A model generated the notes under the pieces. The model did no database searches. It was not told the DNA's origin and saw only the letters and a program-made list of their open reading frames with translations. A stretch of DNA of 63,078 nucleotides, the filler included, from Collodictyon triciliatum (Eukaryota), in NCBI GenBank assembly GCA_043381765.1. It is 7 parts of 7 records of this genome, joined end to end, with 100 filler letters (N's around TTAATTAATTAA, not from the genome) between each part and the next. Parts side by side here need not be neighbours in the genome. Positions count along the whole stretch, not along the records: positions 21,617 to 32,323 come from JBHJMP010002588.1; positions 32,424 to 43,123 come from JBHJMP010002589.1; positions 43,224 to 53,921 come from JBHJMP010002592.1; positions 54,022 to 60,682 come from JBHJMP010002644.1; positions 60,783 to 63,078 come from JBHJMP010002676.1; 2 more parts are not named here. One strand, written 5' to 3'. A program made the position numbers and the translations under genes. Numbering within the stretch: the first letter of the stretch is position 1; the number at the start of each line of letters is the position of its first letter. Below, piece by piece: positions 21,884 to 62,980 of this stretch.

Positions 21884-23534
21884 ATGTCCAAATCAGAAGT
21901 CTACTCTGTCGAGGCGATTCTTGATCGGAAGAAGGAGAAGGTATCCTGAGACGTCCTGGTTTCTCTCCTTCGCAATTCGACTTAAGACTTAAATACATAA
22001 ATCCACATATCAACATAAACAGTTTTTGAGAGCTACAAATAGAGATGATAAAAATAATAATGAAAAAACATTACAATAAGAAACCCCTTATACCAATCTA
22101 CCTTTCGTTTCTTTTCTTTCTCTTCTTTCTCTTCTTTCTCTTCTTTCTTTTCTTTCTCTTCTTTCTTTTCTTTCTCTTCTTTCTTTTCTTTCTCTTCTTT
22201 CTTTTCTTTCTCTTCTTTCTTTTCTTTCTCTTCTTTCTCTTCTTTCTTTTCTTTCTTTTCTTTCTCTTCTTTCTCTTCTTTCTCTTCTTTCTTTTCTTTC
22301 TTTTCTTTCTCTTCTTTCTCTTCTTTCTCTTCTTTCTCTTCTTTCTCTTCTTTCTCTTCTTTCTCTTCTTTCTCTTCTTTCTCTTCTTTCTCTTCTTTCT
22401 CTCTCTTCTTTCTCTTCTTTCTCTTCTTTCTCTTCTTTCTCTTCTTTCTCTTCTTTCTCTTCTTTCTCTTCTTTCTCTTCTTTCTCTTCTTTCTCTTCTT
22501 TCTCTTCTTTCTTTATAATTACGCGACACATTTTTCTTCATCTTGCTTTTTTTTCAAAATAATAATAATAATGCCATAGAATCGCTGGATGTATCTCCTC
22601 AAGTGGGTTGGATACGACGAGCCAACATGGGAAAGTGAAAAGAACCTAATTGGGTGCGAAAGTCTAGTTGAGGATTTTCTCCAGGGACAAAAGGGAGAAG
22701 GAGCTGGCGAACCTGACTTCTCACCAAAGCAACCTCCAAACAAACGAACTCCTCGAACAAAGAGACGAAGCACTGATTCTTCAAGTCAACCATCTTCCTC
22801 ATCACGCCGCAGAACCATGCCAGAAGACGTACCGTCTCCTTCCCAGCCCAAACTCAAGCAAGACGAAGCCAAACGACAATTGGATTTTAGTTCAGAGCCC
22901 ACATCAGGTTTTCTTTCTGCTCAATTTAAGGTCAAATCAATTCACTTTGAATCGAATAAAGGAAGAAAAAAAAAGGCCAAATCAATTCACCACAATAAGC
23001 AAGCGCATGTGATGCTTAACACATAGTATACATTTGTTTACATTTAAGACTCTCTTTTTCTGAATCAGCTGACCAGATGGAGAGCAGCAAAGAGCCAACA
23101 GGCGACTCAAACACGAATTCCGCACCTGGTCCGAGTTTTACTTTGCGCTGCTTCGTCCCCTCTAACGATTTTGCATTTTCGGGTGAGCCTGAAAAGGTCG
23201 TTGCTGCCTACGTTATTGATGAAGAGCTGTATCTTGGTGTCAAGTGGTATTTATTCCTTCATATTATGATCTATCCTTCTCCTCCGACTCCTCCTCCAAC
23301 TCCTCCTCTATCTCACTGCATTGTCTATATCCAGTCATCCAAAACCCTTGTTATGGGCGTATGTCACAATTAATTAATGAAATTTTTGGTGTTAGTCATG
23401 AAGAATCATCTGAAGTTCTCTTCTACAAGTCTAGCGCTCTCCGTCACAAGATTCCACTCCTCCTCATCGATTACTATGAATCACGCCTTAAGTTCAGCAG
23501 TATCCCTGCTGCAAGTTTTACAAAGACACAATAG
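21884..23534 (+). CDS. HP1: HP1-like protein (chromodomain + hinge + chromoshadow domain); 4 exons
   Basis: MSKSEVYSVEAILDRKKEK|NRWMYLLKWVGYDEPTWESEKNLIGCESLVEDF (aromatic cage present); basic hinge; EPEKVVAA..ELYLGVKW|...LRHKIPLLLIDYYESRLKF; TAG at 23532-23534. Confidence 0.9.
22110..22513. repeat. (TTCTTTCTC)n 9-bp polypyrimidine array in HP1 intron 1
   Basis: About 400 bp, about 45 copies. Confidence 0.95.
22928..22990 (+). mobile_element. Ultra-short retroposed insert, family A, with 18-bp TSD
   Basis: AAGGTCAAATCAATTCAC [TTTGAATCGAATAAAGGAAGAAAAAAA] AAGGCCAAATCAATTCAC. Confidence 0.8.
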
Positions 23535-23759
23535 CCACAACACCAACCTCTTTATCAGAGGTTTAACATTCATGACAAAGTTTCTACGCCTATCAGTCCT
23601 TAACAAACCACACTGATGCATTCTCGTTTATGCCAAATAAGACCCTAAATCTTACGCAAATAGCAGTGCTCGAATTGTATTCATATGCCTGGTTTTACAC
23701 AGTTCAAGTTTTTTTTCCTTTATACGATCCAAGTGTAGGAAGGGATTTATACAGTTGAA

Positions 23760-26700
23760 GTTATTTATTGAGTCTACTTCTTATCCAGTGCCATATTTTG
23801 TTTGTGAGTGTGTTCCTTGTTTTGATACGAATCATGCAGGGTACCACAAGGTATTTATAATAAGTTGCTGAGAGAAGTCGATGTGATACTTTGTTCTCTT
23901 CGTCGTTATTGAAACTGCGAGCTCTTGGGTATTACAGCACTCAGTGGTATTATATGTACAATAAGCGAAATAATAATCTTGCAAAGGCAAAAGTTATTGT
24001 CTTCTAGACAGACAATTTGCTCAATCTCGTTGCGCAGGTTGACAGTATCTGTATAAATCCTAATGAGGCGAACAACATTTCTTTTCAGTCTCTCATTCAA
24101 TCCTTGTTTTTAAAAATAGAGTGAATGAGAATAAAGTGAGGGGAAAAAAGTGGTGAATGAAGAAAAAAAAAAAGAAGGAAAAGCTTATCAATATAAGTGT
24201 CTGACTTATGAGATGATTGTATTCCATGTAAATCTTCTCTTCAACACAGGTTGCACAAAACACCAAGGCAAATCAGTCATCCATGTTTGTAGATGTACTG
24301 AATAAGTCTCGCACGGAAATCGAGTGTATGAATGGAATGATTGTTTGTGTTCGCTTATTCCATTGCTCCTCTAGTTTTGATTTAAGGACAAGGACAATGG
24401 CTCAATTCCATGCGCAGAAAATGTCTGATAACACACATTAAAAAAATAATAATCTTCATCTCCTGTAAACCTGTGCAGGTACGAGAGTCTAAGGCGTTGG
24501 GCCTCCTCTGCCCAGAAAATACCTCTGTCTACGAAGAAATTAGGCAGAACGAACGCACTTACGAGGCATGATGCTGGCTTCATCAATATGCATTAAAGAT
24601 ATCATACGTTGCAGGTTAAGCGCTCTTTCACTCATGATTTTTAAGGTCATATGTGTGTATAGGTATATTTGATACGAACCTTACAAAAAAAAATTGATAT
24701 AATATCGAAATGTGCTTAACCTATTACGTTTATCAGTTTATTGATAGCAATACCAAAACACTGTATTGGATGGGGAGTAGTTCATTTTGAAGAATTGGTA
24801 GACGTCAATAAATACACATAAAAGAGAACATGTTTGCTTTGCTTGGTTTCCGAGTGGCGTATGCTGGTTATGTATTTTTTTGGGTCAAGAGCATGAAATA
24901 TGTCGTGATTTTTTAGAGCCGTGTTTGACTCATCACATCCACAAGTCAGTTCCCATGTAGAGAAACTTTGCAGGCTTCATCGTGCTCATGAATTTGTCGA
25001 TTTCATACTCTGTCTCCAAAACAATATCCTCAACCTTTTCCAGTTCTTCATCTTCCTCATCAACTGCGCCAAATCGTGAGATTATAAATTGGTTCATATG
25101 AGATGGGGTGAGAAATGAGGAAAATGTGATTAAAAACATAGCGATATATTTTTAAGAATTTGTTCATGTATGTTCACCTTTATGTTGAAATCCTTTGTGG
25201 ACACACTTTCCAGTTGCATTGGGAAGAATAGGAGACCTTCGAGAGATGTGGGATATGTCGGGCCTAACGAGATACAATAGAATTATGCGAGAATGGCAGC
25301 AGTACTAGAAAGTTTCACAAGATATGATTGCATGAAACAACCAACCTGCTAACATCCAGTGAAATATCTTTTGATGCATCCAGGTGGTGCTGGTATGGAC
25401 TGCCGCTTCTTCTTTCCAACTTTTGTCGCAAAATAAAGAATAAAAAGGGGAAGGTTGAGAAAAGTATCGCTCCTGCGCCTTCCATATGCTATAATTTTGC
25501 GTCATAAATTGTAGCAGGAAGAAAAACGAGAGAAAAAGAAAGGAAGAGTGGAGTATTTTTAGATTACAAATATATAATAATGGTAAAACCTGCTCTCTGG
25601 ATAGTTTTTTTCGGGAAATATTCTCAGAGTATATCCTGTGTCTTTCCAACACTTTAATTCGCTCCAACTCTTTTTCTTTTTTCTGGTCTCTCTCCACTTT
25701 CTTTCTAGTTCTTTCCATGTCTGATATATCATGAAGTGTCAGATGGTTGTATTTTGCTAGGCTTTCTTAAATAGGCATGATTTAATATGTTTGCATGATT
25801 TTTTTTAACGATAAGAAGAAAGAAATCCAAAAATACATACCTCTTGTAAGGAAGTTCGGAATAGCTAAATCTTTTGTTCTGCTGACAGAATATGCAGATA
25901 CGCTGTCGTCACCAGATCGCTGAGACTGCGTAGATTTCGGTGCCGATGAAGCCCGCTGATTAACATGGCAGTTCAATCGGTACCCACCAACATCGGCAAG
26001 TTTCTAAATGAAGCATTTTATGTGATGGTCTATTCAAGGAAAGTAAGTCTGACAAAAAGATAAAATCAAAAATTGGCATTCATCGAACAAAAATGACACA
26101 ATATTTTTTTTATTCAGTAAGAAACGTCATGATTGAATTCGCATACGTTCGTTGTATATGCTCCATCTACCCGGTTTGATGGCCTGTTGCATGGTTTTAG
26201 TGTTATATATTGGTATGTAAGGCCAATCCTTACTATTTGATTGCCTATCATTTTTATTCTGCCTTTCAATTTGTGTGAGATGTGATTTTTTAAGGTGTAT
26301 TTTCTTGATGATATTTTCGAATCTAACTGAAATTAAGAGCACTTTCCACACACACTTACAACAAGGCAGCTTATTGGATGGAAGTAAATCCTCTTATTAT
26401 AAAAGTTTAGACTTACCAGAACCATTTACGTGCCACTATGTCTTCAGGACTTCCTCCAAACTTGTATTTTTGATATTGAGTGGCTTCCTAACCATCCGAA
26501 TTGAAATATGACCAATATTGATAAAGAAATATTGAGTAGGAAATAAGAAAATACACAAAACCCATTCGACTTTCCAGCTGGACAAGAGAGAGACAAAAGC
26601 AACACAATATATTAATGGCGAATGTATACTTTGGGTTTTTTTTTAAAAAAAAAAATATAATAATACACCCTATCAATTAATATATAGGATGATTTTTGAG

Positions 26701-26928
26701 AATATCGGATCGAAAAGAAAGAATGCATAAAAAAAAAAAAAGAACTCGTTGCGAGCGATCGGAAACTCTGATATTTAAGAATAAGCGAGTGGAGTGCGTA
26801 GATAGATCGAGAGATGGGTATTTAAATCACTTACCTTGCCATCGGGAGACATGTGCCGAACAGGCAACTCTGAAAATCTGGACACTCTCAAAGTCATCTC
26901 TCGAACCTGCGTCGTGAGATGGAGCCAT
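23760..26928 (-). CDS. Multi-exon gene of unknown function with a charged coiled-coil-like segment
   Basis: Series of GT-AG-bounded coding blocks (MERTRKKVERDQKKEKELERIK; VDEEDEELEKVEDIVLETEYEIDKF; LNERLKRNVVRLIRIYTD); ends approximate. Confidence 0.55.
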
Positions 26929-27882
26929 TGAGTACGCCCAAAATCAACTTGGAATTCATTCAACACAGCACAACAGGATGAAACAAAGGATCGCAACTTT
27001 CGCTCAAGGCGAGAGTGGGCAACAGTATGAGCCGAAAACAAAAAAAAAACATGAATTAAATGAGAAGAAGGAAAAAAAAAGACTGGGGCTGGGATATCGT
27101 CATCAATGAATAAACATGGGAGTACTTCTTGCGCGCCCCGGCTCGTCTCTTCACAGACTTCCGGATCACACTTGATCAAAAAGGCTGCGATCACAGACAT
27201 GATAACAAAAAAGGAAAGGCGCACACTAACGTTTTTCAAATTTGGAATTTATATTATAATTTGTTAAGAATTACTAATAAGGTGTTTTTATAATTTTGTA
27301 TCTTACATTATATTGATTTATAATAATAATAATAATAATAGTAATAATTAATTGATAGCTTGTTCAATACAACTTCAATGAATATAGTCTTAAAGAGACA
27401 CTTTTGTTCAATCACATGATGTTCTCATAACCTAAAATTGGAATTTAACAAAGCCCGTTTCGCAAACAAAAAACAGGAAAATTAAATCACCTCGACTCGC
27501 GTCGAAAATCCGGCGGCTGTTTTTCCAACTAATCGGCCTTAAAAGAAGGAGACGATCGCAGGGACACCAAAGAGAAATCCCGGAATAACTCTTCGAAAGA
27601 CGACTTTGACTGGAGAATCACATGAATGAAAATAGCATTTGAATGGCCATTTTTGCTCCACACCTTATTTTTTTCTTCTAATGAATGTCTTTATCCTTCG
27701 CACTTTTTTTTTATGTCGCTACCCAGCAATTCTGGTGGACTAAGAAAAAAAACAACAACAAAAAAAAAAAGCTTTACAGGATTATTTTCGAATCTCTTAA
27801 TGAAAGATGTTCTCATCGTAGGATTTTCAACACATCCTTTCTCTTGGATAAGGCGACATTCGATAGCAGTCACAAACAAGGA

Positions 27883-30527
27883 ATGTGTATGTAAAACAGT
27901 TTACCTATCTGGATATCACTCCGCCACCGGTTTACACAGACTTTTATTTATTTGCTTGACAGATTATACTCCATATCATAGAAACCATAACACAGTCATT
28001 TTGTTTCAATGTATCGATAATTGTGCAAGAGGATTCTGAAAAACAAAAAGAAAAACAAAAAAACAAAATAAGCAATCATAGAGTCAGGTTTTTTTAAATA
28101 ACCAAAAGCAACCTTTGCAGCGGAATCTCTCTACTCCATCGCCGTTCTAATCGACGAGTTGAAAAACGAGGACTCTGCTGTGCGACTAAACTCTGTCCGC
28201 AAATTACCTGACATTGCGCGTGTTCTTGGCCCCGACCGTACACGAAATGAGTTGATGCCATACATCCAAGGTTAAATACATACCTTGTCCTTGTATGCTG
28301 TGAAAATATTTTGCTCATAGTGTTCATGTAATATCGCTTTATTATGCCTACATGGAAATATATCAACCAGCATATGGCAATATTCAGCCAACCTACTTTT
28401 CTTCGAATCATATATCCTTTCGGTAGCGTGAAAGCCTTGTTATCTGCATATGTAATAATCCATGAAAATCAACGCACGACAGATTCCACGGATGACGAGG
28501 ACATTGGAGCGGCACTTGCAGAGGAACTTGGAAATCTGATTGATGGCGTGGGCGGGCCAAATCACTCTGGTTTTCTGGTTGCCCCCTTAGAGACTCTCGG
28601 CGGTGTTGAAGAAATCGCTATTCGCGACAAGGTTTGGTAGATTATAATAGAATAATGTATCCAATGATTTGTTAATATTTCGTTCTATCCGTATATATTC
28701 ATGCATATGCCCATTTTGCTGCCATTTAACTTCGTTATATAGATGTAAAAATCAAAAAGTTAGAACACTAAAAATATACATTAGGCCATGGAATCTCTCT
28801 GTAAAATCATCGACCGGATGCCCAATGAGGTTGTAGCAGAGCATATTATTCCTGCTATAAAGCGCATGAGCAATAATGAGTGGTTCTCTTCGAAGGCAGC
28901 TGTCTGCTCCATATTTGCAGCCACTTACCCTAAGGCTGGTGGATTCAAATCTGATTTGCGCAGGTATAAATACCATACGGGATTTTCGAGAAGAAATAAA
29001 AAGGACCCCCCTTCATTCATACCAATGTATTAGCCTTTCATGAACAATCCATGCATCAAAAAATCCCACGAATGTTATAGTCTCTTCGGCGAGTTGTGCT
29101 CCGATGAAACACCTATAGTTCGAAGAGCAGCAGCTTCGAATATTGTGGTAAAATTTGTCATGGAATTTTTTTCCTTTATGTGATTCATAGATTTGCCATG
29201 GAAACTTGATTCCTATTTCTCATGAAGCCATCTTTCGATTAAATTCCATTTTCACACGATTAATATTTATCCCACGATATACCATGTTATTCCCAGAAAC
29301 TTGTTAAGCAACTAGAAAGAGAGTTTGTAAAGGGTGAGTTTGTGCAACACCTGAACAAGTTGGCGCATGACGAGCAGGACTCTGTTCGTTTGTTAAGTAT
29401 TGAGGGATGTATTGCTATTGGCACCCTGTTGACACCAGAAGAGAACGCGTCATCTCTTCTTCCTATTATTCGTTTATGCTCGGGGGATAAATCCTGGAGG
29501 GTTCGGTATATGGTTGCCAACCACTATCACGAGGTTTACCTTCGGAACTTATTTGATTGATATACGCTTGGTGTAGACATGAATGACTTGCTTAATTTTT
29601 TAGTCTATTTAATCTTTTTATTACATGATACCAGCTTAATTCTCGACTCGGTCAATATTTTGGATAGATAATCATGATATTCTTGTTTACCATGCCATCA
29701 CTCTAAATGAAACACAGGTATGCAAAATTATCCCACCTGAAAACATCAAGACCGAGCTTGTACCGGCTTTCGTCAAGTTATTGAAAGATGGAGAGCCCGA
29801 GGTCAAGGCAGCAGCTTCTTCAAAAGGTAATCATGATATGAAGTGAACAGAAAAGCAAATAGATAAATAGATACTCTGCTCTGCAGAATATCCAATATTT
29901 TATTTCCGAAAGACTTTCATGCTCAATTAAATACGGGTCCATACAGTTGCTAGTTTCTGCTCCAACCTGGCACCTGAAGTGATAGTCAAGCAAATTATAT
30001 CATGCGTTCGCGAGCTAACAGGAGACCCCTCCCAACATGTTCGAGGTTTAAATATATTCTATTTTCATCGTTTCTGGCTATTTCTTTTTCCATTCGGGAC
30101 GTTCTTTAATATGTTGATTTACTTGCTTCCTCGCTACACTTTGAACCGAATAAAGGGAAAAAAAATGTTGATTTACTTGGTTTGAAAGGCAAAAATTGTT
30201 TTTTCGAATAACCGCACTACAGACGATTTCTTGTCATTTTAATATCCACTTTATTAATTTTCCTGTTTTAATTTACATGTTCTAATATATAATATAGCAT
30301 CGCTAGCATCTGTTATTGTGGCTCTTGGGGCTCCACTGAGCCGAAACGTTGTAATTGATAACCTATTGCCTTTGATTTTGCAACTCCTCAAAGACGAGTC
30401 GTCTGAAGTTCGGCTCAATGTCATCTCGAAGCTGGATTTGATGAATCAATCCGTTGGCTTAGACCTCTTGTCCCAGGTCTTTTAATTTCCTTTTTTTTTT
30501 TTTTTTTTTTATTATCAATAATTTTTA

Positions 30528-30572
<45 letters not shown>

Positions 30573-31881
30573 CAATAACTTTGAAGCGATTGTCATTTAT
30601 TATTTAGCGTATGAATACTAGTCCATCATCGATTATTTGTAGTGTACCTTATGTTATCCGTCTCAGAAAGAACAATATTCTATGACAATAAACTCATCTT
30701 AAAATCCTCTTGAAAATTATCTAGTCCTTGCTACCAGCGATTATTGAGCTCGCTGACGATAAGCAATGGAGAATCAGACTCGCTATCATCGAGCAGATGC
30801 CACTTTTGGCGAACTTGCTTGGCTCCCGTTTCTTTGACGAAAAATTCAACAACCTTTGCACTTCTTGGCTTGGTGACCCGGTGCACGCTGTTCGTGAAGC
30901 AGCCACCCTGAACCTCAAGAAGCTCTCTGAATCATTTGGTTTGCGTTCGTTTATTAACAAATCCAAAAAAAAAAATCATTTGTTTAGTTCATCGCTCTCG
31001 AACATAATATATAGTCATGTATTACCTCTTTCTCTAGTAACGTTTCAGAGTTCTGACGTTTAAGTATGCCTTTCAACGACACAGGTGCTGATTGGACAAG
31101 GGCGAACGTAATTCCAAAGATTCTTATCATATCACAGCACCCAAATTATCTTTATAGAATGACAACACTTCTGGCAATCCAAACTCTGTACCAAACAGCT
31201 ACGCTAGACGTCATCTCTGCTGTTTTTATCCCGGTCCTAACAAAGTATGGCAGATATACATCACCTTCCTCAATTTATTTGTCTATATATAATAGTAAGG
31301 AAAACAAAACAGAAAAAAAGGACGAATTACACTTTACTCTCCAATGAAGTAGATATTCTTTTTTTTTTTCTTCTTCTTCCCTTTATTCGATTCAAAGGAG
31401 TAGATATTCTTTTTTATTACTTTTATAAGGCTGCTTTTTTTTCTCTCGAAATTAACAACCTCGCCTTTTTGATATGTTATCTAATATAAGGCGGTAATTT
31501 CTAACGGAGTGAATACCCCTTTCATAGATTGACGAACGACCCTGTCCCAAATATTCGTCTTAACGTTTCGAAAACAATACAGACTCTTGTTCCATCGATG
31601 GACTCAGCCACATGTGCGTCATTCACTTGTTCATCATATGTGTTGGGATGCTGGATATACCCGCTACATTTTTTGAATGATGATGAAATTAATCACACAA
31701 CCACGAATACGCATCTATTTGATAGTTGTTTTCTACTTTTAGGTAAGAATATATATTACAACTTATTCTCACGAAATATTAAACTGTAGCGCAACAAGTC
31801 AAATCACTAGTCTCACGCTTGGTGAATGACCCGGATAAGGATGTGGCATTCTTCGCATCGCAAGCATTACAACGATTCTGA
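27883..31881 (+). CDS. PPP2R1: Protein phosphatase 2A scaffold subunit A (PR65, HEAT repeats); 13 exons
   Basis: ATG T|gtatgt..ag|CG gives [94 protein letters not shown] at 31879-31881. Confidence 0.96.
30111..30179 (+). mobile_element. Ultra-short retroposed insert, family A (longest copy), with 15-bp TSD
   Basis: ATGTTGATTTACTTG [CTTCCTCGCTACACTTTGAACCGAATAAAGGGAAAAAAA] ATGTTGATTTACTTG. Confidence 0.82.
31348..31415 (-). mobile_element. Ultra-short retroposed insert, family A, with up to 17-bp TSD
   Basis: AGTAGATATTCTTTTTT occurs on both sides; the minus-strand insert reads CCTTTGAATCGAATAAAGGGAAGAAGAAGAAAAA. Confidence 0.82.
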
Positions 31882-31924
31882 TAAAACATTTTCACTTGTT
31901 TCTTTTCTTTTCCTTTTCCCTTTC

Positions 31925-31971
31925 TTTTCCTTTTTTTTTTTTTCCTTTATTCGATTCAAAGTTTTCCTTTT
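31925..31971 (-). mobile_element. Family A insert just 3' of the PP2A-A stop
   Basis: Minus strand CTTTGAATCGAATAAAGG + A tail; low-complexity TTTTCCTTTT on both sides (possible TSD). Confidence 0.7.
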
Positions 31972-32195
31972 CTTTTTAGTTATGATTACTATTGCATGAG
32001 CGACGATGCCAAGCTATGGAGTCAGAGATATTGTTTCTCAGATATTTAGCCTATTTCCCCCCGCGTTCATTCGCGCGATATTATCTTTCCTTCCCCTCAT
32101 AAACTGACAATATGCCGTTAGCGACTTATATCATGCACCCGAAAGGTGGGCTGAGGAGCACATTTTACCTTGTTCATCATTTTTTTGAAAAGTTT

Positions 32196-32323
32196 TACAA
32201 AAGCAATGGTGCGCCAGATACCAAAGAAAGAGGATGCAACTGACCTCAGAGACTGGCGCCCGATATCGCTGCTCAACAACGACTACAAGATATTTGCCAC
32301 AATCCTAAGAAACCGAATCTCTG
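32196..32323 (+). mobile_element. Non-LTR retrotransposon reverse transcriptase fragment (L1/Tx1-like), 5'-truncated and cut by contig end
   Basis: IPKKEDATDLRDWRPISLLNNDYKIFATILRNRI is the canonical LINE RT motif. Confidence 0.92.
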
Positions 32324-32423
32324 NNNNNNNNNNNNNNNNNNNNNNNNNNNNNNNNNNNNNNNNNNNNTTAATTAATTAANNNNNNNNNNNNNNNNNNNNN
32401 NNNNNNNNNNNNNNNNNNNNNNN
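32324..32423. other. Artificial contig spacer
   Basis: N44-TTAATTAATTAA-N44. Confidence 0.98.
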
Positions 32424-32739
32424 CACAGAGGGATAGCTTTGCATAGGGAGCTTGGAGGCTGCGCTGCGGTGAGTGTGAAGAGCATAAACAGGGAGAGCAA
32501 ACAGAGCCCCTTTTGTTTTTTTAACCAGGTAGTACTATCTTCTTCTTCTATACAATAAATTTGGACTTTCCGTTACAAGATGTAAAACGTGAAACGTGAG
32601 TTGTGAGTTGTGTTAATAATGTGCCAAAAAATTTTACGCTTGGGTGGTACAAAAAGATGTCCACTTGCTTTTTTAAGCTTCAGAATACCATACATAAGAT
32701 TCAGTGAGCATACTAAGCACACAAAGCGTACAAAGCATC

Positions 32740-32912
32740 TCGCCCGAAAAAATGAGAATGCGCGTTGTGAGAAAAGTCGATCTTCGCCCAAAAAAATGAG
32801 AAAGCGGGGTGTGAGAAAAGTCGATCTTCGCCCAAAAAAATGAGAAAGCGGGGTGTGAGAAAAGTCGATCTTCGCCCGAAAAAAAAGAGAATGCGCGTCG
32901 TGAGAAAAGTTG
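32740..32912. repeat. About 44-bp minisatellite, 4 copies
   Basis: Unit approx AAAAAATGAGAA(T/A)GCG(C/G)G(T/G)TGTGAGAAAAGTCGATCTTCGCCC. Confidence 0.9.
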
Positions 32913-33380: not shown

Positions 33381-33598
33381 TATGACACGGGATTATGGCA
33401 CGGGATTATGTCGCGGGATTTTGAATCGGGATTATGACACGAGGTTATGCTACGGGATTATGCCACGGGATTATGACACGGGATTACGATACTGGATTAT
33501 GACACGGGATTATGCTACGGGGTTATGATACTGGATTATTACACGGGATTGTGACACGGGATTTGTCACGGGATTATGATACGTGATAATGACGTCAT
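33381..33598. repeat. 13-bp minisatellite, about 16 diverged copies
   Basis: Consensus GGGATTATGACAC. Confidence 0.9.
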
Positions 33599-47424: not shown

Positions 47425-47462
<38 letters not shown>

Positions 47463-52166: not shown

Positions 52167-53036
52167 TTCACTGCTGCCCTTTCCTTTCCTTTTATTTTCT
52201 TTCCCTTCTTTCCCTTCTTTTCCTTCTTCCATCTTTTCCTTCATCCTTTTCATTCTTTCCCTTCATCCTTTTCATTCTTTCCCCCCAACAGAAACTCTCT
52301 GTTCCTGGGCTCCAATCGACGCGGATGAAACCCACCGTGGGTGGTGTGTTTCGCGCAGACTCTGCTGACTCGTCCCCAACGCCACGCGCCAACCCAACCC
52401 AACCCAACCCTGCTTCGTCCAAAAACTCCATTCCTAAAACCCCTTCGCTTTTCCGAGCAAATTGGAAAGCGCCTACCGAAACGTTGCACTCCGGCTCATT
52501 CGACCCTTTATGGTACAAGAAAAAAATGATACTAATAGTCAATTGACACAATGGATAGGACGATGAAAAGAATAATGAGAATGGATAATGAGAATATCAT
52601 AGACAGTGTTAACGAGAATAGCATAAAGTATAATGGCAGGAATAGCGAATGGAACAACGAAAAGAAGATTCCATTCTTTCTCTTTCTCCCGCCTCTTCCA
52701 TCTCCAGGCGTGTGTGAGTGACGTATGCACATCCCCTCAAAATGCGTCTTAGGCCGATCAATGACGAGATCGCAGCCCAAGCGACAACTCGACTTCAAAG
52801 AAGTCACAAGACCGCTGCAAGAATGATAGCAATAGCAATTGCAAAGAAAAAAAAAGGTGAAAGGAGAGAACAGAGTAAGTTTGTAAAGGAGCAAAAGGCG
52901 TGGCCTTTCGAGTGGATTCGACCCGCGAAGCAAAGCCAAAGCCCAGGATTCAGTCGCAAGCAGCCGGCCTGTCTATGCGGCGGCAAAGTCTGCTCTCTTG
53001 GCTCACCCACCACAAACATGCAGGAATCCATCTGCC

Positions 53037-53676
53037 ATGGCCGTCACAACCGCTGCCGTCCAAGAGACCAATCGCCGCCTACGCCATGCTTTTGAGACAG
53101 GCAAAACGCAGTCCATGGACTGGCGTCTGGGACAGCTGAATCGGTCTCTTTTTCTTTTTCTTTTTCATTCTCTCTCTTTCACTCTCTCTTTCACTCTCTC
53201 TCTTTCACTCTCTTTCATTCACTCTCTTTCATTCACTCTCTTTCATTCTCTCTCTTTCATTCTCTCTCTTTCATTCTCTCTCTTTCATTCTCTCTCTTTC
53301 ACTCTCTCTTTCACTCTCTTTTTCATTCTCTCTCTTTCATTCTCTCTCTTTCACTCTCTCTTTCACTCTCTCTTTCACTCTCTCTCTTTCACTCACTCTC
53401 TTTCATTCACTCTCTTTCATTCACTCTCTTTCATTCACTCTCTTTCACTCTCTCTCTTTCATTCTCTCTTTTCTTTCACCCAACTCGAGTAGAGCAGCAC
53501 AGGCACTTCTAACCTTGGCACATTTTTTCCCTTTTCTTCTTCATAATATTGGTATTGAAAGAATTGAGGCACTCCTGACTGAGAACTACGAGGAACTTGC
53601 GCAGGCCCTGAAGCTGGATCTTGGGGTCAACCAGGCATTCTCGTCTTTGATCGAGCTTAAGGCAGCACAGAATGAG
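53037..53676 (+). CDS. Class 3 (fatty) aldehyde dehydrogenase, first two exons; 3'-partial
   Basis: RLRHAFETGKTQSMDWRLGQLNR|IEALLTENYEELAQALKLDLG matches the ALDH3 N-terminus. Confidence 0.85.
53145..53478. repeat. Degenerate (TCTCTCTTTCAY)n intronic array
   Basis: Direct observation. Confidence 0.9.
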
Positions 53677-53803
53677 GTCTGTGAAAGGTGTTTCCAGCAT
53701 CCACTAATAATTTGCATAGCATCATATATATTATATTTTAAACTTTTTTTCGAATGCTTAACACAGAAAAGTCAGAATTCATTTAAACACAATTAAATAT
53801 TCT

Positions 53804-53921
<118 letters not shown>

Positions 53922-54021
53922 NNNNNNNNNNNNNNNNNNNNNNNNNNNNNNNNNNNNNNNNNNNNTTAATTAATTAANNNNNNNNNNNNNNNNNNNNNNN
54001 NNNNNNNNNNNNNNNNNNNNN
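53922..54021. other. Artificial contig spacer
   Basis: N44-TTAATTAATTAA-N44. Confidence 0.98.
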
Positions 54022-54242
54022 AGTGAGATAACTTTATCTTTAATCTCTTTTGTAACCATTCTTGTTTTTTTTTTTTTTTTTTTTTTTATTAATATTATAT
54101 TTTAATTTTTTTTATTTTTTAATTTTTTTTTTTTTTTTTTTTTTTAATAATATGACATATGAAATTATTTCACACTATAAATGTTGTCTCTTTTTCACTT
54201 TAGGACGTTTGATATTTCCCTTAATCCGATATCGGTGGACAG

Positions 54243-56066
54243 AATAAAATTGTCCAATATGTTGAATGAAATAGCTAGCGATGTAAGTATCTCATCATCT
54301 CGGCAGTCCAGAGAAATGCAAGAACAAAATATTTTTTTCTTTTTGTTCTATACAAACATATCACATACATGTAGATTTTCAAGCTTCATGAAGAGATATC
54401 GCTGGTTCCATCATCTTTCAAGATTGAGGTAAATTTACACCATATGTTCCTTAAAAAATCAAATCATTATACACTTACATATGCGGGGCTTTTTTAAATT
54501 TATTTCTTAAATTTTATTTGCTCGTGCCTATTGAAAAGAAACAAAATCAATTCAGGGTTCCTTCATCAGTTGTATCGGCCGTAGGAATTACATGGAAGAT
54601 TTTGTTTGTGTGGTCCCCTCAATGCTGGGAAAATACACATTCTTTGGAATATTTGATGGTAAACAACCCATAGTTTCCTGAGTAAACAAAAAAATGGCAC
54701 TCCCTTATGCTTGATATTTCGTTTAGGTCACGACGGAAAGGAAACTTCACTGTATCTAAAGTCACATTTTCCCCAGGTAAGAATTACATACGTTTAGACC
54801 ATTTAGGGTTGGATAATTGCTATCCGGGGCGATATACTAATTTCGACATGTGAATAGATACTTGAGAGAAACTTGAAAATTCTTTCTCCAAAGGAAGCGC
54901 TAAGAAAGTGAGGAATTTGATATTATCGATAATACCTATATTTGGATTTATAATTTTCCTTTCCACCTTATCTATCAGTTGCTGTTCTTATTATAATTTT
55001 CACTTAATTATGATTAACATGTACCTTTTTTTTTTTTTAGGACATACGATGACACTGAGCGAGCGCTTCGCTTTGCCTCAATCGGCACATCCGGAAGCAC
55101 CTCGTTAACAATACTTGTTAGTTTTGTTTTTATTAACATAAAAATCATACCTTGCCAACAGCTAAGTCTGTCGTGAATAAAAAAAAAAAAAAAAAAAAAA
55201 AAAAAACATAAAAAATCATACCTTACTTGATCACTTCCGTTTATGTAAAAGTTAACATGATGATGATTTTTTTTTTCTTACAGATTCTGAATTTTGGCCT
55301 TTTTTTTTTTTATTCTGAAAAGATGGACCACGACTACATCTACTGCGCTAATGCGGGTGATTCAAGAGCTGTTCTATTCCGACAAGAAGATTTCATCAGG
55401 CTGTCTACTGACCATAAGCCATTTGTAAGGGCAAACTTTACATTGTGGCGAAATCAGATGAATGACTATTTGCTTTTATTAGTCGCGAGAAATTATCATG
55501 GTAATCTAAGCTCCTCAGTCTATTATTTATCGTGCCACTACCCTCATATCCAGGTGACAGAGGAACACAGCAGAATACGTGAGAGTGGAGGATTTGTAAC
55601 CGAAGATGGCCGAGTGTCGGGAATCTTATCCATGTCACGCGCTTTTGGAGACTATCATCTGCATCCTTATGTCACATGGGAACCGTCTATCCGAACAATT
55701 CCAAGGTACACATCAAGATAACTGCAACTATTGCTATTAACTATGTTTCATCCATGACATATTGAAGTAGATAGTGGAACTGGAATACACTTTTCTAGAC
55801 ATTTTTGCTCCTGATTGACAAAAACCTCTCTTGTACAATTAAGATCCGATTCTGATGAATGGTTGGTTCTTGGCAGCGACGGGCTCTGGGACACAGTGCC
55901 TGACAAAATGGCATTCGGCATTTTACAAACATGCAACACAAGCAAAGAGGCTGTTTACAAGCTGCGTGACAGGGCTTTCCTGAATGAAAGCGCAGATAAT
56001 ACATCGGTTGTAGCACTACGCTTTGTGAACGAAAGTTTTCGGACGCGCTCATCCCAATCTCGTTGA
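54243..56066 (+). CDS. Protein phosphatase 2C (PPM) domain protein; 5'-partial
   Basis: GRRNYMED; FFGIFD|GHDG; SGSTS; YCANAGDSRAVL; STDHKP; LSMSRAFGD; LVLGSDGLWD; SADNTSVV. Confidence 0.92.
55135..55224 (+). mobile_element. Ultra-short poly(A)-tailed retroposed insert, family B, with about 19-bp TSD
   Basis: AACATAAAAATCATACCTT [GCCAACAGCTAAGTCTGTCGTGAAT(A)~26] AACATAAAAAATCATACCTT. Confidence 0.85.
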
Positions 56067-56589
56067 TATCTCTGACTTTACCATTTCCATCACATCCCAT
56101 ATTAATCTACATGCCCATCAACAACACTTCCTTTCTACATCGTATCATCTCCATTTTTTTTTAATTTTTGACAATTCTGTTTACATCATTCCATAACAAA
56201 GTACGCCCTGAATATGTTATAGTTTTACATGCTCATTTGTATGCATTTTCCATAAATATTCATGACTAGGATCTCTTACAGCTGATGTTTTGCCGCTACT
56301 GTTTCGGTAAAGCCACAAGGGGAGTGTTATAATTATTGATATATTTCATGATATCGATTATTTTTTTTAGCTGCAGCGAAATGCGTCTTCTGGGAAATAA
56401 TCATAACTTGAAGACAGTTGTCAAGTTTTTTGAATCAGAGTCATGTCCATTTGCTGAGATGTATTTGTGTGTTCCTTCGGTTGTTTATGTCACACAGAGT
56501 ATATACACATATTAAAGAACGGATAATAGAATAAAAGAGTATGCTAGAGAACGTCTTTCTTAAAATGCTGCAACTGGGAGCACACAACC

Positions 56590-59500
56590 TTGACAAGCCC
56601 TTCTGCTGCCTCGTTCTTGCATTGCGCTTCGTTGTTTTCGGGGTCGGAGGCGAATCTCTACATATCTGCAACAAAGATTTTGGGATCTTTTGAGGTTGAT
56701 GTCGGGGGTGTGAAAAGGGATGTTGCAGAGGGCTTTCTTTGCGAGAATGAGCCCCACTTCTCCTTTCGCTCCTTAGCCTGGATATTTTTACATAATCTTT
56801 TTTTTAAGAAAAAAAAATGGGAAATGAAAAGATTTCACTTTTCCTGATATAATAATATGAAACTCTTCATGTTGAATATGACCACCCACACACGGGCGAA
56901 AGAAGGAAGAAAGAAGAAAAAAAAGAACATACGGACAAAGGTGTATCACCAGTTTTGACTTCTTCCTGAGTAATTAAGACGGATGGAAGAGATGACGACT
57001 GATCGAAATAAAGAAGTTATAGAAGTTAGTGTATCCCTGATGACAGGCCAATAAAAAGTGAATTATTCTCACAACACTGGGCGAGTACCTTAGAGAACGG
57101 AGATATACCACTGTCAGAGAACGTAATCTGGAAAAGTTCTGCGTTCGAATATGAACCATTTCCAAGTATATCAGAATATCCATTCTTTTCAGCATCCCGA
57201 ATGATTCGGTTGAAGTCCAGGCTGTATTTCTGAGCGCACGTTAGGCATGGGTTTTGTAATTCATAAAAATATAATTCTTCTTGTTGGTGCCTTTAAGCTG
57301 TGAAAAAAGCAAAGGAATACAAGGTAATCCATAATAAATCTAAAATATCATATTTTTTTGGCAAAGTTTCGGCAGGTGATTAGAATTACCGGTTTCGGGC
57401 CGAACCTCTCAGTTCTGGAGAGGAATGAACTCGTTCCTACAGGACTAGAACTGCGTTTCGGATGTACCGCGGGGATAGTGGGTGGAGCCTCTTGAGTTCC
57501 GGTTGGCTAGTATCGGGGAGGCAATCTAGTTAACACCATAGAGTACTATTGACTTTCATTTAAAATATGTTGGTCTGGTAGATTATGCATACATAAAAGG
57601 CTGCATACATGACCAGAGCCAGGCCGGGAGGGGGCAGTTGGGGATGGGAAACCACGCCCCGCTGATGAGTATTTCCTAGATGGCCTCCTATCACTGAAGT
57701 TTCCATTAGCACTGAGAGGGCTTACACTGGGCCTGTTTGCTGTAATGCTCGTAGGCTGCGATGTCGCACCGAGGAAGTCCGAATGCCGGGGAGCTCTAAA
57801 CCGAGGGGCATATATGGTGATTATTGCTATGAAATCCCAAAGCAACTTTGCAACAAACTGAGACGCGACTGCTTACATATACACACATAAGTAAAATAGC
57901 GATTTGTGCATAGGCTGAAACAAATAAAACTATGGGGTGCATAGTAAATTCATGAACTCACTTGGAGAAACCAAATGAACACGAACGTGGTTTTGTGGAT
58001 GTTTGGGATTTGGTGGGTTCGTAGTACCCTGGACCGATTGCGGAACTGGTTCTATGATGGATAAATGCCTCGACTTAATAGATATTGAATTGATGTATCC
58101 TTCGTGTATGTTATACTGCAGGGAAAGTCATGAGTGAGTAATGATATATACAAGATAATATATCTTCTGTCATGATCTTTTTATGAATTTTGTGATTCAA
58201 ACGATGAACCCATATGTTTCCTCTTTTTTCTTTCTTTCTTTTTTTATTGTTCTCTTCGTCATTTGGACTAATCCATAAATGATATCCACCTATTTGCAAG
58301 TGCAGGGTCACCCGGACCACCTTTTCCAAAACGAGTCGTACTTGACTGAAAGCTGCTGGTAGGTTTCTTCATATTAGGACGGGCTGGTTCAATTTCATAG
58401 GACCCTGGTCCGACAGCGTGCACAGCCTTATATGTTATGGATTAACGAATGGAAACATTGGCAGTTAGAATGACATGCAAATCGGTAGCTGGCTGAAATG
58501 ATGAAAAATATCAATCGAATGATATTTTCCCCCACACATCTATATATACTCTTCAGGTACTTATGATGAAACCTTGTTTTGAAGTGGTTTTCTTGATGTT
58601 GTGAGAAAGCTACTAGATGGCTTCGAAAGGTCTCGGTGCGTTGTATTCGATGAAATCTCGTACTCTCCAGGTCCTAAAAATATGGTGGATATGGTCAGAC
58701 AGACGAAGATAAATATTTTTATGAAACAAATTAAATGATATTGTCGCCTGTTAGCGATTAAGAAAATAGGGATACGTGTAGATATACACTGATTAAAATT
58801 AAATCTTGGTACCGAGAGTTGTGGGAGGTTCAAGGACGAATCTGGGAGTTTTGGATTTGAATATTGAAACCACACCTCCTTTTTCCTAGTTTTTGTCGAA
58901 AGGAGTTTACGTATCAAGAGTACCAATTAAGTATATGCCTAGAAGAATGTCTAATATTCATAAATACAGATATACTACATAAGGTTTTCCTGACTAGAAA
59001 TTAAGAGGAGTTACGAGAGTGTTTTCTGGATGCAAGATAGATTCTTGAATCTTTCTTGATGTCGCATCTCTCTTGAGCTCTGCCGCCGCTGATTAAGATG
59101 AGAACCAGTAATCGGGACTTTGTGAGATATTTAATAACAAAGATTGCATGTCTACTTATTTTGTTTATAGTGCTACCAATAAAATATTCGAAAAGGTAGA
59201 GGTGGTGATAATGTTTCTCTTACAATCGTGTATGGGTGAGAAAATCGACTCCATCAGACAACCAAGCCATACGTGCAATGAAAAATTGTATTCATTATCA
59301 AGATAAACATCAGAACTAATGAGTTCTGGATAATTTTGTTGTATTCTCTTGAGATATAGCACAAGCCGATCTTCATGGACCTGAAATAAATAATAGTAAA
59401 GAAGAAGAAGAAAAAAGTAATATTTAACATGTCATGCCGGCAAAGACCTTGAATTGAAATGCAAAGTTTTCATCTTGTAAATAAATATATCAATAAATAA

Positions 59501-60209
59501 ATCAAGCATGACAAGACTACTTGTGTAAGAACTGATTATATCAATAAATCAACATAGTATACGATATCAGTTCCGAGTTTTGTGAAAGTTTGTAGGGCAT
59601 CATCAAACTCAACAAGATAGTCCTTATCAAAATCAGCCGCCTCAAATATATCTGTGAGTTTCCTCTCCAGTATATTGATAAACATGTAAAAATCTATCTC
59701 ACTAATAAAAAAAGGAGTTATTAACACCACTTAGAGAAAAATAAAGCCCTGTATAACATAACATAACATAACATAACGAAAAAAACAAAACAAAACAAAA
59801 AACAAAACAAAAAACAAAACAAAAAACAAAACAAAAAACAAAACAAAAAACAAAACAAAAAACAAAACAAAGAACAAAACAAAAAAAAAAAACGTAGCAC
59901 AGCATGCCATACTTTCTGATAGTTGGGTCATGAAAATCGTCTCGTAAACCAAGTTTCGAGAGAAGCTCCTGTGAGATTAGGAGAAATGCTTTTATGACCT
60001 AAGACATAACCCATTTCTATAGCCATAGATACATAGAGCAGTGGGGCTCTCTCACTTTTGTATTCCTGATCATGATAAGCCTAAAGAGAATATATATAAA
60101 CGCTTACAATCAACTGTCTCTGATCGATGTAGCCGCGCTGGTCATGATCAGCATCGGAGAAAGTCTGCTGGAGCGATCGCAGCCGATTGCGAGTCAAACA
60201 TGCTCCCAT
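56590..60209 (-). CDS. Predicted N-acylated protein with EF-hands and SHIPPO/STPG (PGPGxY) repeats; 3' end uncertain
   Basis: MGACLTRNRLRSLQQTFSDADHDQRGYIDQRQL; DPTIRNEIDFYMF; DIFEAADFDKDYLVEFDDA; SIFKSKTPRF..LGPGEY; SSSFLTTSR..VGPGSY; SSFQSSTTRF..IGPGYY; SSFLSRTERF; exon phases compatible throughout. Confidence 0.72.
59755..59892. repeat. (AACAT)n followed by (AAAAC/AAAAAAC)n intronic array
   Basis: Direct observation. Confidence 0.9.
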
Positions 60210-60596
60210 TCTCACTTATTATAATCTCGCGGTAAAACTAGTTTTGAACAGTTGAGTGTCGAACGTCCGACTGACTCGTTGGCGAACACAAAGTAGCTCG
60301 CGGATCCTCTGTGCTTATTGAACAGATATATGGTGATTCCTTAGGCGTTGCCTTTCTTTTTTGTTTTTTGTTTTTTTCTGTTGCATTTCATACATACCAA
60401 CTAAAACGCTCACAACGGTCAACCTTCCACTTGCATGATAATCAACAGTATTTTATTTCCACTAGAAGGGGTATCCAATCTTTCGATTGGTAAACCCAGT
60501 GTGCTAGTATCCAAGGTCTCACCACTTTTTTCATAAAGATTGTGTAGTGGTGAAGGCTGCCTGGAAAGACCCAACAGCCTGTTTTTTAGAGGAATG

Positions 60597-60629
<33 letters not shown>

Positions 60630-60682
60630 TTTAATATTTTTTTTTTATTTTTTAATTTTTTTTTTAATAATAACATTTTTTT

Positions 60683-60782
60683 NNNNNNNNNNNNNNNNNN
60701 NNNNNNNNNNNNNNNNNNNNNNNNNNTTAATTAATTAANNNNNNNNNNNNNNNNNNNNNNNNNNNNNNNNNNNNNNNNNNNN
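60683..60782. other. Artificial contig spacer
   Basis: N44-TTAATTAATTAA-N44. Confidence 0.98.
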
Positions 60783-60925
60783 TCATTATTCATTATTCAT
60801 TATTCATTATTCATTATTCATTATTCATTATTCATTATTCATTATTCATTATTCATTATTCATTATTCATTATTCATTATTTCAATTCATGCGAATTGGT
60901 GGAGGCTTTGGCTTTAGTTAGCTAG
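60783..60925 (-). mobile_element. Family C repeat copy whose 3' tail is an (AATAATG)n array
   Basis: 60880-60925 aligns with 48976-49022 (about 37 of 47 positions by eye); heptamer array at 60783-60880 is directly downstream on the minus strand. Confidence 0.65.
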
Positions 60926-61006
60926 ATCCCTCTCACCGTTTATAACGGTGTTGAATATTAATTAAAATATGTTCAATACAATATGTGCTTTATTGTTTAA
61001 TGCCTT

Positions 61007-62980
61007 ACGGCACTGCCTACAGTCCCGAGTTTATACCAACCGGGACTGTTGCATGTGGCAGGACCAGTGCATTCGCTCATTCCATATATCTCAAAGATTG
61101 GAAGACCCTGCAAAATCATATCTTAATAATAATAATAATAATAATAACACTGCAAAAATTCTAATAAGTCAATCAATTTGCACTTTTCATGAAAACGCTG
61201 GGATATTCTTACTATTGAATTGAAGAATCTCAATGCGGAGCGGTTGATAGGAGCAGCGGCTGTATACAGAGAATGTGCTCGGTCGAGGCCCAATTTTTCC
61301 TTTACCTAATTTATTGCTTGTTACTTATTTTTAATTTTTTTTTAAAAAAATTAATAATAATACCCTTACTTATCGAATCTAGTACCTTGGAAAAGAACAA
61401 TTTATCATAAATCCCGTAATTCCAAGGGTGAGAACGGTTGTTTTGCATTCTGTCACAGTCATTTTCTCCGCACTCAATACTCCATCTCATTATTTTCTTT
61501 TTAACTAAAGCGCCGATAATTTTTAATTGTGATACTGTAAATTTGGCACTGTTGTAATAAAAGCATTTTTACTTTATTCGATTTAAAGGTCGCAATCAAA
61601 CCATAAAATTGAGTCATGAAACAAAATGAAATACCTCCAGATGCCTTGGAGAATGCATCTTTGAGGGTAGCCTCAATTTTTTCCCATACTCTAGGAACAC
61701 CAAGAAAAACGGTGGGTCTTACCTCGCGAAGCAACTAACGTGTTTGAATGATTTATTTTTGATAAAAATCAGCGATGAATAAAATCTCATATAATTATTC
61801 TATATTCGATTGAAATACAATCATAAATGTACTATCGAAGCACGTGGTAATCACATTACTTACATCTGAGAGACCAGCCTTCAATGCCTCTGGTGAAGCA
61901 AACCAGACTGTTCCGCCAATCAGTATGGGACCATAAAGGGACATAACCTGCTCGGCGATGTGACTAAAAAAAAAACATGAATAGATCGGAGAATTTTTTT
62001 TTTTGGTTTGAAATAAAAAAATGTTTGATCCATTAAATACAATACTAATGTTGATAAGATTAAATGATTGACTGAATTATTTTGTTTTGTTTGTTTTTTT
62101 TTTTTTTGTTTTTTTCGGAATAATAGACTAGATAATATGAGAATTGACTTTTTCGGAGACACTAAGACTACAAATAAAGAAAAACATATTAAGACTCCCA
62201 ACTTTGAATCGAATAAAGGGGAAATAAGTTTCAACCCCCATATTTATAATGGTTGATAAAAGAGCTACCTTAAAGGTAAATAGCTGATAACATTTTCGTC
62301 ACTTCCCATTCTGTATAAAGAAAGTATTGCCTTCACAGTCCAAGTTATGTTTTTGTGAGAAATCATGACACCTTTCGGATTTCCAGTAGTTCCTGACGTA
62401 TAAATGAGAGAGCAAACATTATCCACCTCAAGAGTCCGAATTCTTTTTTGGAGCTCTTCGTCAGAAACCTTTTTAAAATTCACTGCATTTATGTAGGAAT
62501 TCAAACGATATTGGTCATAGAAAAATGATATATAAAGCTATTGATTGATTCTGTTTCAAAACTAACTCTCTGTCCTTCTTTTATGAAATTGCTCCAGGTA
62601 ATGGCCCAGTTTTCGGGGTCTGGAGTGTCATTCATAATGACTATCCTCGACACATTTGTGAGCTTAGAACGTATCAGTCTAAACTTTGCCAGCTGTTTTA
62701 AATCCTCCACGAACACAAGCTGCAGAATATATAGAAAAAAAATTGGTTTCCTGAGAAAGAAAAGAATAATAGTCAAGAGTTGATTAAAAAAAAGGTGTTA
62801 ACCTGAGAATCAGAATGCGTTACAATATATTCGCACTGTTCAGGACTATTTGTTGTATAGATCCCTGACACTACTCCGCCCACATGAATTGCACCGAGGG
62901 CTGAGAAAAACCACTCTGGTGAGTTGAAGCTAATTATGGATATTCCCTTTCCCGTTTCTAAACCGCACGCAATAATGGCC
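61007..62980 (-). CDS. ACSBG: Long-chain-fatty-acid-CoA ligase, ACSBG (bubblegum)-like; partial at both ends
   Basis: FNSPEWFFS..GIYTTNSPEQC; LIYTSGTTGNPKGVMISHKN; SYLPLS|HIAEQ; EVRPTVFLGVPRVWEK; EIYGMSECTGP. Confidence 0.92.
62201..62224 (+). mobile_element. Family A core in an ACSBG intron (no clear TSD)
   Basis: ACTTTGAATCGAATAAAGGGGAAA; a further diverged copy on the minus strand at 61572-61589. Confidence 0.65.

Follow-up and report, generated by a model that had tools for sequence, protein, structure and literature searches.

Long interspersed nuclear elements (LINEs) of the L1 type are known for truncated copies whose ends scatter over the whole element, and SINEs (short interspersed nuclear elements) and other non-autonomous partners borrow the 3' tail of a LINE. 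Platy-1, at about 100 bp, is called the shortest SINE in primates (PMC4864456). Tailless retropseudogenes of tRNA, 5S rRNA and U2 are reported to be truncated at defined positions by L1 (PMC5322556); they have a fixed 3' end, which is attributed to internal priming in single-stranded loops, and carry no A tail, and the authors there weigh a pre-cut RNA against a property of the priming itself. Here we analyse a stretch of DNA from the freshwater eukaryote Collodictyon triciliatum (assembly GCA_043381765.1), 63,078 bases in total and referred to as the window, in which units of about 20 nt with the core CTTTGAATCGAATAAAGG recur. We conclude that these units are probably dead-on-arrival copies of the 3' end of an L1-like LINE (apurinic endonuclease (APE)-type and poly(A)-tailed), inserted by target-primed reverse transcription (TPRT).

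Eight short copies of a shared core

At up to three mismatches, the core matches seven times in the window (22945+, 29173-, 30139+, 31380-, 31944-, 61571- and 62202+) against 0.18 expected matches. The expectation is based on 100 dinucleotide shuffles (mean 0.18, maximum 2), none of which reached seven. An eighth, diverged copy at 23717-23745 (-) was added by a half-motif search combined with a small hidden Markov model (HMM). HMM search of the window returned eight matches at E<=0.0054, with the next tier following at E=6. Although 59 non-simple 13-mers occur at least three times in the window, only words of the core span more than one contig; the remaining frequent 13-mers represent tandem arrays or repeats internal to contig 2, including those of the WD40 open reading frames (ORFs). 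The repeated core claimed in the original prediction is therefore real and gains two previously unlisted members, 29173-29190 (-) and 23717-23745 (-). The positions given there were right except for the diverged minus-strand copy, which occupies 61571-61588 instead of 61572-61589, while a possible relic placed at 50154-50168 is not significant (match 50159-50168, nhmmer E=6.1).

The window consists of seven contigs joined by N44-TTAATTAATTAA-N44 linkers, and distances across linkers are meaningless. Six copies are located on contig 3 (21617-32323) and two on contig 7 (60783-63078), with none in the other approximately 49 kb. Finding six of eight copies on contig 3 has a binomial probability of about 5e-4. 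The clustering of all eight on two of seven contigs, or 13 of 62 kb, points to strong insertion bias or contig heterogeneity and cautions against extrapolating to a very high genome-wide copy number, as the original prediction did.

To score target-site duplications (TSDs), the 45 nt preceding a copy were compared with the 70 nt following it, the best ungapped repeat was taken, and 200 shuffles were run for each copy. Direct repeats of 13-20 bp flank six of the eight copies (A to F) and were reached by zero or one of the 200 shuffles. A-rich tails are present in seven of eight copies, namely AAGAAAAAAA, A7, A7, GAAAA, (GAA)4 running into A's, an A run and A5. This combination of an A tail and a variable TSD, six TSDs and seven tails in all, fits the proposed insertion via TPRT by LINE machinery. 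TSDs start at T|A(A) in five of six cases; as a test of the nick site this is weak because A's adjacent to the tail fall into the TSD by definition.

The core is perfect in copies A, E, F and H. Copy A (22928-22989, +) is framed by the TSDs AAGGTCAAATCAATTCA (22928-22944) and AAGGCCAAATCAATTCA (22973-22989), which enclose the 18-nt core (22945-22962) and the tail AAGAAAAAAA (22963-22972); its TSD score of 14 was reached by 0/200 shuffles and it sits in an HP1-like gene, between the chromo and chromo-shadow exons. Within a spliced-out intron (31244->31528), Copy E (31348-31418, -) combines an extra C and the 18-nt core (31380-31398) with the tail (GAA)4 between the TSDs AATAAAAAAGAATATCTACT and AAAAAAAAAGAATATCTACT (score 17, 0/200 shuffles). 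Copy F (31925-31977, -) carries its 18-nt core at 31944-31961, flanked by the A/G-rich repeats AAAAAGAAAAGGAAAA and AAAAAAAAAAGGAAAA with a repeat score of 13 (1/200 shuffles) and an ambiguous boundary between tail and TSD. Copy H (62202-62219, +) is a perfect 18-nt core for which no A tail and no TSD could be detected (166/200 shuffles as good).

A single change is found in the core of Copy D (30108-30179, +), which is situated between HEAT-repeat exons of a PP2A-A-like gene. Its TSDs AATATGTTGATTTACTTG and AAAATGTTGATTTACTTG (score 15, 0/200 shuffles) surround the insert CTT+CCTCGCTACACTTTGAACCGAATAAAGG (30126-30156) and the tail GAAAA. The insert corresponds to 3 extra nt followed by the last 28 nt of the LINE, and the copy aligns with 94.6% identity to positions 1019-1055 of L010rc, the relevant strand of the parental metagenome contig L010 described below. 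Copies B, C and G show two to three changes and imperfect or absent TSDs. Copy B (23694-23761, -) is old and diverged (E 0.0054), with the TSD ACTTCAACTGTATAAA (23746-23761), the insert TCCCTTCCTACACTTGGATCGTATAAAGG (23717-23745), the tail A7 (23710-23716) and the TSD ACTTGAACTGTGTAAA (23694-23709). Its insert comprises 2 extra nt and about 27-28 nt of the LINE end, aligning to L010rc 1024-1054, and its 16-bp TSD has two mismatches (0/200 shuffles). Copy C (29153-29203, -) likewise is diverged, with three mismatches in its 18-nt core CTATGAATCACATAAAGG (29173-29190), the tail A7 and a 13-bp TSD (TTCCATGGCAAAT and TTCCATGACAAAT, 0/200 shuffles); it is antisense to the PP2A-A-like gene and lies in an intron of that gene that is spliced out (29146->29296). 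Copy G (61566-61588, -) consists of the diverged core CTTTAAATCGAATAAAGT and A5, has an uncertain 5' limit and lacks a detectable TSD (120/200 shuffles as good).

Both orientations relative to the host gene are present among the copies. The range from perfect to decayed cores and TSDs indicates that old and young copies coexist, and each of the two length classes (18 and 28 nt) is found in each age group.

The parent LINE

A metagenome scan with the 18-mer yielded 44 loci, of which only one, L010, has a tail. The other 43 lack both a tail and LINE-like sequence upstream, many of them are near-duplicates, and they were treated as chance matches. L010 is a 1157-nt metagenome contig (JGI) whose relevant strand is the minus strand. 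It reads from an ORF2 C-terminus with the zinc-binding region of non-LTR (long terminal repeat) reverse transcriptases through a stop codon and a 3' untranslated region (UTR) of approximately 93 nt to A10 and an AT-rich flank. The 3' UTR ends in ...CATAACCTCGCTACA-CTTTGAATCGAATAAAGG, so that the core makes up its last 18 nt, directly before A10. This layout identifies the core as the terminal 18 nt of a LINE, and copies B and D reach 28 nt into the 3' UTR. Extending the core upstream toward a parent, as had been suggested, thus leads to a LINE 3' end. The initial view of a minimal retroposon, a tiny RNA with a source of its own, is not borne out, given that the 18 nt are the end of the 3' UTR in L010 and two copies extend to 28 nt. 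Taken together, the identity of the core with a LINE 3' end, the tails and the TSDs characterize the copies as extreme 5'-truncated copies of an L1-like LINE and not as a separate gene.

The parent family is also represented in the window by a longer 5'-truncated copy (38933-39680, +), which spans the C-terminus of ORF2, zf-RVT included, and the greater part of the 3' UTR and is 91.3% identical to L010 235-990 over 758 nt. Its zf-RVT ORF (38930-39328) scores 32.5 bits against a Pfam cut-off of 27.5, and zf-RVT is above cut-off in relatives as well. This ORF, one of the LINE pieces noted in the original prediction, can be assigned to the family whose 3' end is the core. There is no A run at the point where the copy departs from L010, and the break could mean that a stretch was deleted, that the 3' end is recombinant or that the subfamily has a different tail. 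The best TSD candidate of this approximately 750-nt copy is a 7-nt match, which is at chance level. A second, more diverged related fragment (36188-36535, -) is 70% identical to L010rc 59-406. The two fragments are mutually inverted and 2.4 kb apart.

Judged by homology of its C-terminus, the only part of ORF2 seen for this family, the parent is probably an APE-type, L1-like LINE. A profile of the C-terminus matched 29 protein representatives at E<=1e-3, seven of them with at least 1000 aa. Six of these seven were scanned (a 2957-aa protein was omitted), five showing Exo_endo_phos and RVT_1 and one showing RVT_1 and zf-RVT, and the profile match lies at their C-terminus. The closest long relative matches human LINE-1 ORF2p across endonuclease and reverse transcriptase (RT) with an E value of 3.4e-57, well ahead of R2 proteins. 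The ORF2p structures 8uw3 and 8sxt are so named in their PDB titles, and a PDB profile search with the ORF2 C-terminus gave zero matches. Overall, the family is rare in databases, with seven protein fragments in 90% clusters. Among candidate homologous proteins, none of the 403 longer ones and seven of the 42 near ones were homologous; all seven are fragments, and no full-length ORF2 of the family was among them. The search for related loci with the ORF2 C-terminus gave one short spurious match each in L045 (27 residues, bacterial genome) and L046, the core plus tail had no match in either the genome contig or the viral contig collection (0 and 0), and no Rfam family matched on L010.

Contigs from public sequencing runs provide a further view of the element. 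Two small runs of a single study contain parts of contig 3, which are also present at small shares in freshwater metagenomes. Where contigs of runs X1 and X2 cover genes of contig 3, they show GT..AG and CT..AC joints and are thus derived from spliced RNA. In these RNA-derived contigs, a 36-nt string found at Copy D is flanked by LINE-like sequence upstream and by poly(A) downstream. Summed contig depth over Copy D was 619 (X1) and 759 (X2) compared with 15-19 on neighbouring PP2A-A exons, and 33 (X3) and 51 (X7) compared with about 4-10 in DNA metagenomes; such sums represent neither copy number nor expression and show only that several or deep contigs contain the string. Empty-site joints were not found among the 15 of 25 joints listed. 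A 191-nt X3 contig crosses Copy D with only 23 letters to its left, below the 31-letter rule, and is no proof of a shared insertion.

In two small RNA-derived runs the string reaches a very high summed depth, which could be taken as a sign of an artefact or of another RNA feature: an adaptor from the library, a chimera of the assembly or a spliced leader. We regard this as barely credible, since other studies (X3, X7) have the string in DNA metagenome contigs as well, the independent JGI contig L010 also contains it, and it sits in introns with TSDs. An adaptor is rejected on the same grounds, namely independent DNA contigs and an intronic position with TSDs. A spliced leader is rejected because the string is in sense orientation and downstream of ORF2, followed by poly(A), which is the wrong end and the wrong strand.

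The RNA-derived contigs also bear on whether the core might be a functional motif for polyadenylation or protein binding that owes its recurrence to conservation or convergence and not to insertion. The core contains AATAAA, and in one X1 contig (place 22962) 15 other letters separate the core from a poly(A) stretch downstream, indicating that the AAUAAA of a copy can probably direct polyadenylation, and may do so where an A tail is missing. A copy that probably can act as a poly(A) signal would fit such a motif. However, six of eight copies are flanked by duplications of local sequence, intronic copies occur in both orientations and the sequence is identical to a LINE 3' end, which together make a motif of this kind very improbable.

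Another question is whether the parent is the LINE itself or a short non-autonomous, SINE-like element or other abundant RNA that shares the last approximately 30-56 nt of the LINE, with the short copies being truncated copies of this RNA. The last 56 nt are missing from the LINE copy in the window, the string depths of 619 and 759 far exceed those of the exons (although not a measure of expression), and an X2 contig contains unrelated sequence up to ...CATAA, followed by the shared 28-nt block starting CCTCGCTACA. On the other hand, L010 is continuous from the ORF2 C-terminus via the UTR up to core and A10, the place where the window copy diverges shows no A run, and X1 contigs extend the 36-nt string upstream with L010-like sequence (...CCCATCCCACACATTTGTATGACATAA). 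No tRNA, 7SL or 5S-like head was found at or near any copy, and a SINE-like parent would leave the fixed 5' ends unexplained. We therefore consider a parent other than the LINE improbable.

Two fixed 5' ends and their possible cause

The 5' ends of the copies fall on two positions. In copies A, C and F the first base is exactly the C of CTTTG, at 18 nt from the tail (L010rc 1029), Copy E starts at the same position after one extra C, and Copy H, in which non-LINE sequence lies immediately upstream of the C, probably shares this start (L010rc 1029). Copies B and D start 10 nt further upstream at CCTCGCTACA, 28 nt from the tail (L010rc 1019), and are preceded by the non-LINE bases TC and CTT, respectively. 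Copy G is too decayed for its start to be called. In total, four to five copies start 18 nt and two start 28 nt from the tail. The shared, non-random start claimed at the outset is thus confirmed, with five of eight copies at the C of CTTTG (one after an extra C), two 10 nt upstream and one ambiguous. BLAST with the whole of L010 (word size 7) over the window detected no copy between 32 and approximately 750 nt. Scattered 5' ends as expected of random truncation were not seen among the eight copies, only two discrete starts, and four to five starts at one nucleotide plus two at another cannot be reconciled with random truncation.

A hairpin or palindrome, originally put forward as the cause of the shared start, is not supported by RNA folding. 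The minimum free energy is 0.0 kcal/mol for the 18-mer and -0.3 kcal/mol for the 28-mer, and neither the last 49 nt (z=0.27) nor the 109-nt UTR plus tail (z=0.03) folds better than shuffles. The same holds for all four segments considered, from the 18-mer to the whole 3' UTR. Microhomology was rejected as a cause of the fixed ends, since the copies differ in their TSD ends, of which no more than 2 nt (Copy A) match the LINE bases upstream of the start. Three of six 5' junctions carry one to three extra pyrimidines (C, TC and CTT), corresponding to purines on the cDNA, and there is only one 2-nt microhomology. At human L1 junctions, extra bases without microhomology typify template run-off while internal truncations tend toward microhomology.

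Insertion would likely proceed as follows. The endonuclease of the element would nick the target at T|A(A), the poly(A) tail of the LINE RNA would pair at the nick and cDNA synthesis would follow, presumably carried out by the LINE's own protein. The cDNA would stop 18 nt (four to five copies) or 28 nt (two copies) upstream of the tail, and the insert would finish between TSDs of 13-20 bp. The favoured cause of the stop is that the template itself ended there: 3'-terminal fragments of LINE mRNA with ORF2p on their poly(A) would have been copied to their 5' end, i.e. by run-off. Such short templates could arise when 5'->3' decay or a cut leaves a protected stub behind. The extra junction bases without microhomology, read in light of the human L1 rule, and the lack of a fold that would stall RT lead us to lean, tentatively, toward a short template. 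Run-off on a pre-shortened template accounts for somewhat less than half of the weight we give to the LINE origin, and a reproducible RT stop or early template jump on intact RNA for roughly a third, with other causes making up the remainder. In its most specific form, the short copies would be cDNAs made by run-off on poly(A)+ fragments of two defined lengths (18 and 28 nt) that were shielded by ORF2p (and poly(A)-binding proteins) during decay or slicing and carried to the genome by the same protein. We put this forward as a tentative possibility.

With the same LINE origin but an intact RNA template, RT might reproducibly stop or jump to target DNA 18 or 28 nt past the poly(A). This could be due to protein binding, to modification of the RNA or to the transition from initiation to elongation inside a conserved terminal block. 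Early termination resulting in 5' truncation is the textbook fate of LINE copies, and two discrete ends only 10 nt apart are in line with such a stop. Further, the terminal approximately 33 nt are common to RNA contigs with differing upstream sequence, which would fit a conserved recognition block where the enzyme might dwell. However, no structure is predicted at or upstream of either stop, the extra nucleotides at three of six junctions and the near absence of microhomology resemble run-off, and a purely kinetic abort would spread lengths and not give two. We consider a stop on intact RNA less likely than not, ranking it only a little behind a short template.

Several observations weigh against a LINE origin with short templates as outlined above. 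The sample comprises eight copies only, confined to two of seven contigs, and its short side is unsampled, as copies below approximately 15 nt are unrecognisable. The TSD of Copy C begins with T|T and not T|A, copies G and H have no TSDs and H also lacks a tail. The link between ORF2 and the core depends on a single 1157-nt metagenome contig, L010, while the LINE copy in the window diverges after ...CCATGCGC, 56 nt short of the 3' end, and contains no core. One X2 contig (place 30129) joins the terminal approximately 33 nt to upstream sequence unlike L010 at ...CATAA, suggesting that a second LINE subfamily or a short SINE-like element may share the tail. Finally, contigs cannot reveal RNA 5' ends, and the short-template step is drawn from six junctions and the rule for human L1.

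Window context and comparison with known retroposons

The contigs of the window span 1-10708, 10809-21516, 21617-32323, 32424-43123, 43224-53921, 54022-60682 and 60783-63078, separated by linkers at 10709-10808, 21517-21616, 32324-32423, 43124-43223, 53922-54021 and 60683-60782; an additional N gap is located at 16824-17265. The eukaryotic DNA of the window has a G+C content of 33-42%, and its introns are short and of the GT..AG type. Based on Pfam matches, the HP1-like gene contains Chromo (22580-23023) and Chromo_shadow (23223-23531) and the PP2A-A-like HEAT-repeat gene extends from 29264 to 31060. Further gene pieces include large WD40 ORFs, DOCK, PP2C and AMP-binding. Two open frames of 491 and 480 aa at 10809-13657 (-) consist nearly entirely of WD40 repeats (10-11 each) and probably belong to one very large WD40 protein. 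A tRNA-Asp (GTC) at 9511-9582 (-) is the sole tRNA or Rfam match in the window.

Tandem arrays are found in several places. Just upstream of the HP1-like gene, 22108-22512 is an array of (TTTCTCTTC)x45 with 94% matches in which all six frames are open. The terminus of contig 2 (21346-21516) contains approximately 16 copies of a 10-nt unit of the GTAAACAAAA type and contig 3 starts with (TTTTGTT)x10.6 (21617-21690), both of which are satellite-like or telomere-like. Short arrays at 53181-53435, 32766-32865, 42867-42928 and 33381-33500 have units that include a 14-nt TCACTCTCTTTCAT-type unit as well as 44-nt and 32/20-nt units.

In conclusion, this sample, small and clustered as it is, does show real fixed ends at 18 and 28 nt. 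If they hold genome-wide, they would offer a natural read-out of the first 30 nt of TPRT, or of cutting of the LINE RNA beforehand, and would indicate that an L1-type machine is able to insert units of approximately 20 nt plus a tail. They would also explain dispersed, A-rich intronic micro-insertions bearing AATAAA that are overlooked by repeat annotators. Such micro-insertions can seed poly(A) sites and A/GAA microsatellites. Should the copies indeed stem from protected fragments, no shorter retroposed units would be known; they would show, as a natural footprint, where an L1-like RT sits on its own 3' end, and the genome would hold in them a record of how the host attacks LINE RNA. A smooth length distribution genome-wide would instead point to ordinary LINE truncation.

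In the literature searched (supplements excluded), the core motif was not found, and work on truncation hotspots, abortive retrotransposition and shortest SINEs, searched with the same exclusion, reported no fixed-length LINE stubs. The copying mechanism is probably that of ordinary L1-type retrotransposition, and the departure lies in the missing scatter of 5' ends. With 5'-truncated L1-type LINE copies, the short copies share an A-rich tail, AATAAA at the very end of the element, variable TSDs of 13-20 bp and T|A(A) nicks. The parent, too, resembles L1-type LINEs, with a zf-RVT C-terminus in ORF2 and distant full-length relatives that combine an APE endonuclease with RT and match human L1 ORF2p best. 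In contrast to L1 truncations, the ends of six to seven of eight copies fall on just two nucleotides, which lie 18 and 28 nt from the tail, and the 62 kb contain none between 32 and approximately 750 nt. Like SINEs, the copies carry the 3' terminal sequence of a partner LINE together with a tail and TSDs, whereas their inserts of 18-31 nt have no head and no internal promoter, nor room for one. Within the copies, no tRNA-, 7SL- or 5S-derived head or Rfam match was detected, the tRNA-Asp being the only such match in the window. Compared with the benchmark of approximately 100 bp set by Platy-1 (PMC4864456), they are four to five times shorter. The tailless retropseudogenes (PMC5322556) are similar in their L1-type machinery, in ends at one or few defined positions of the source RNA and in their TSDs. 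They differ in which end is fixed: the copies described here have a normal 3' end with a tail, and it is their 5' end that is fixed.

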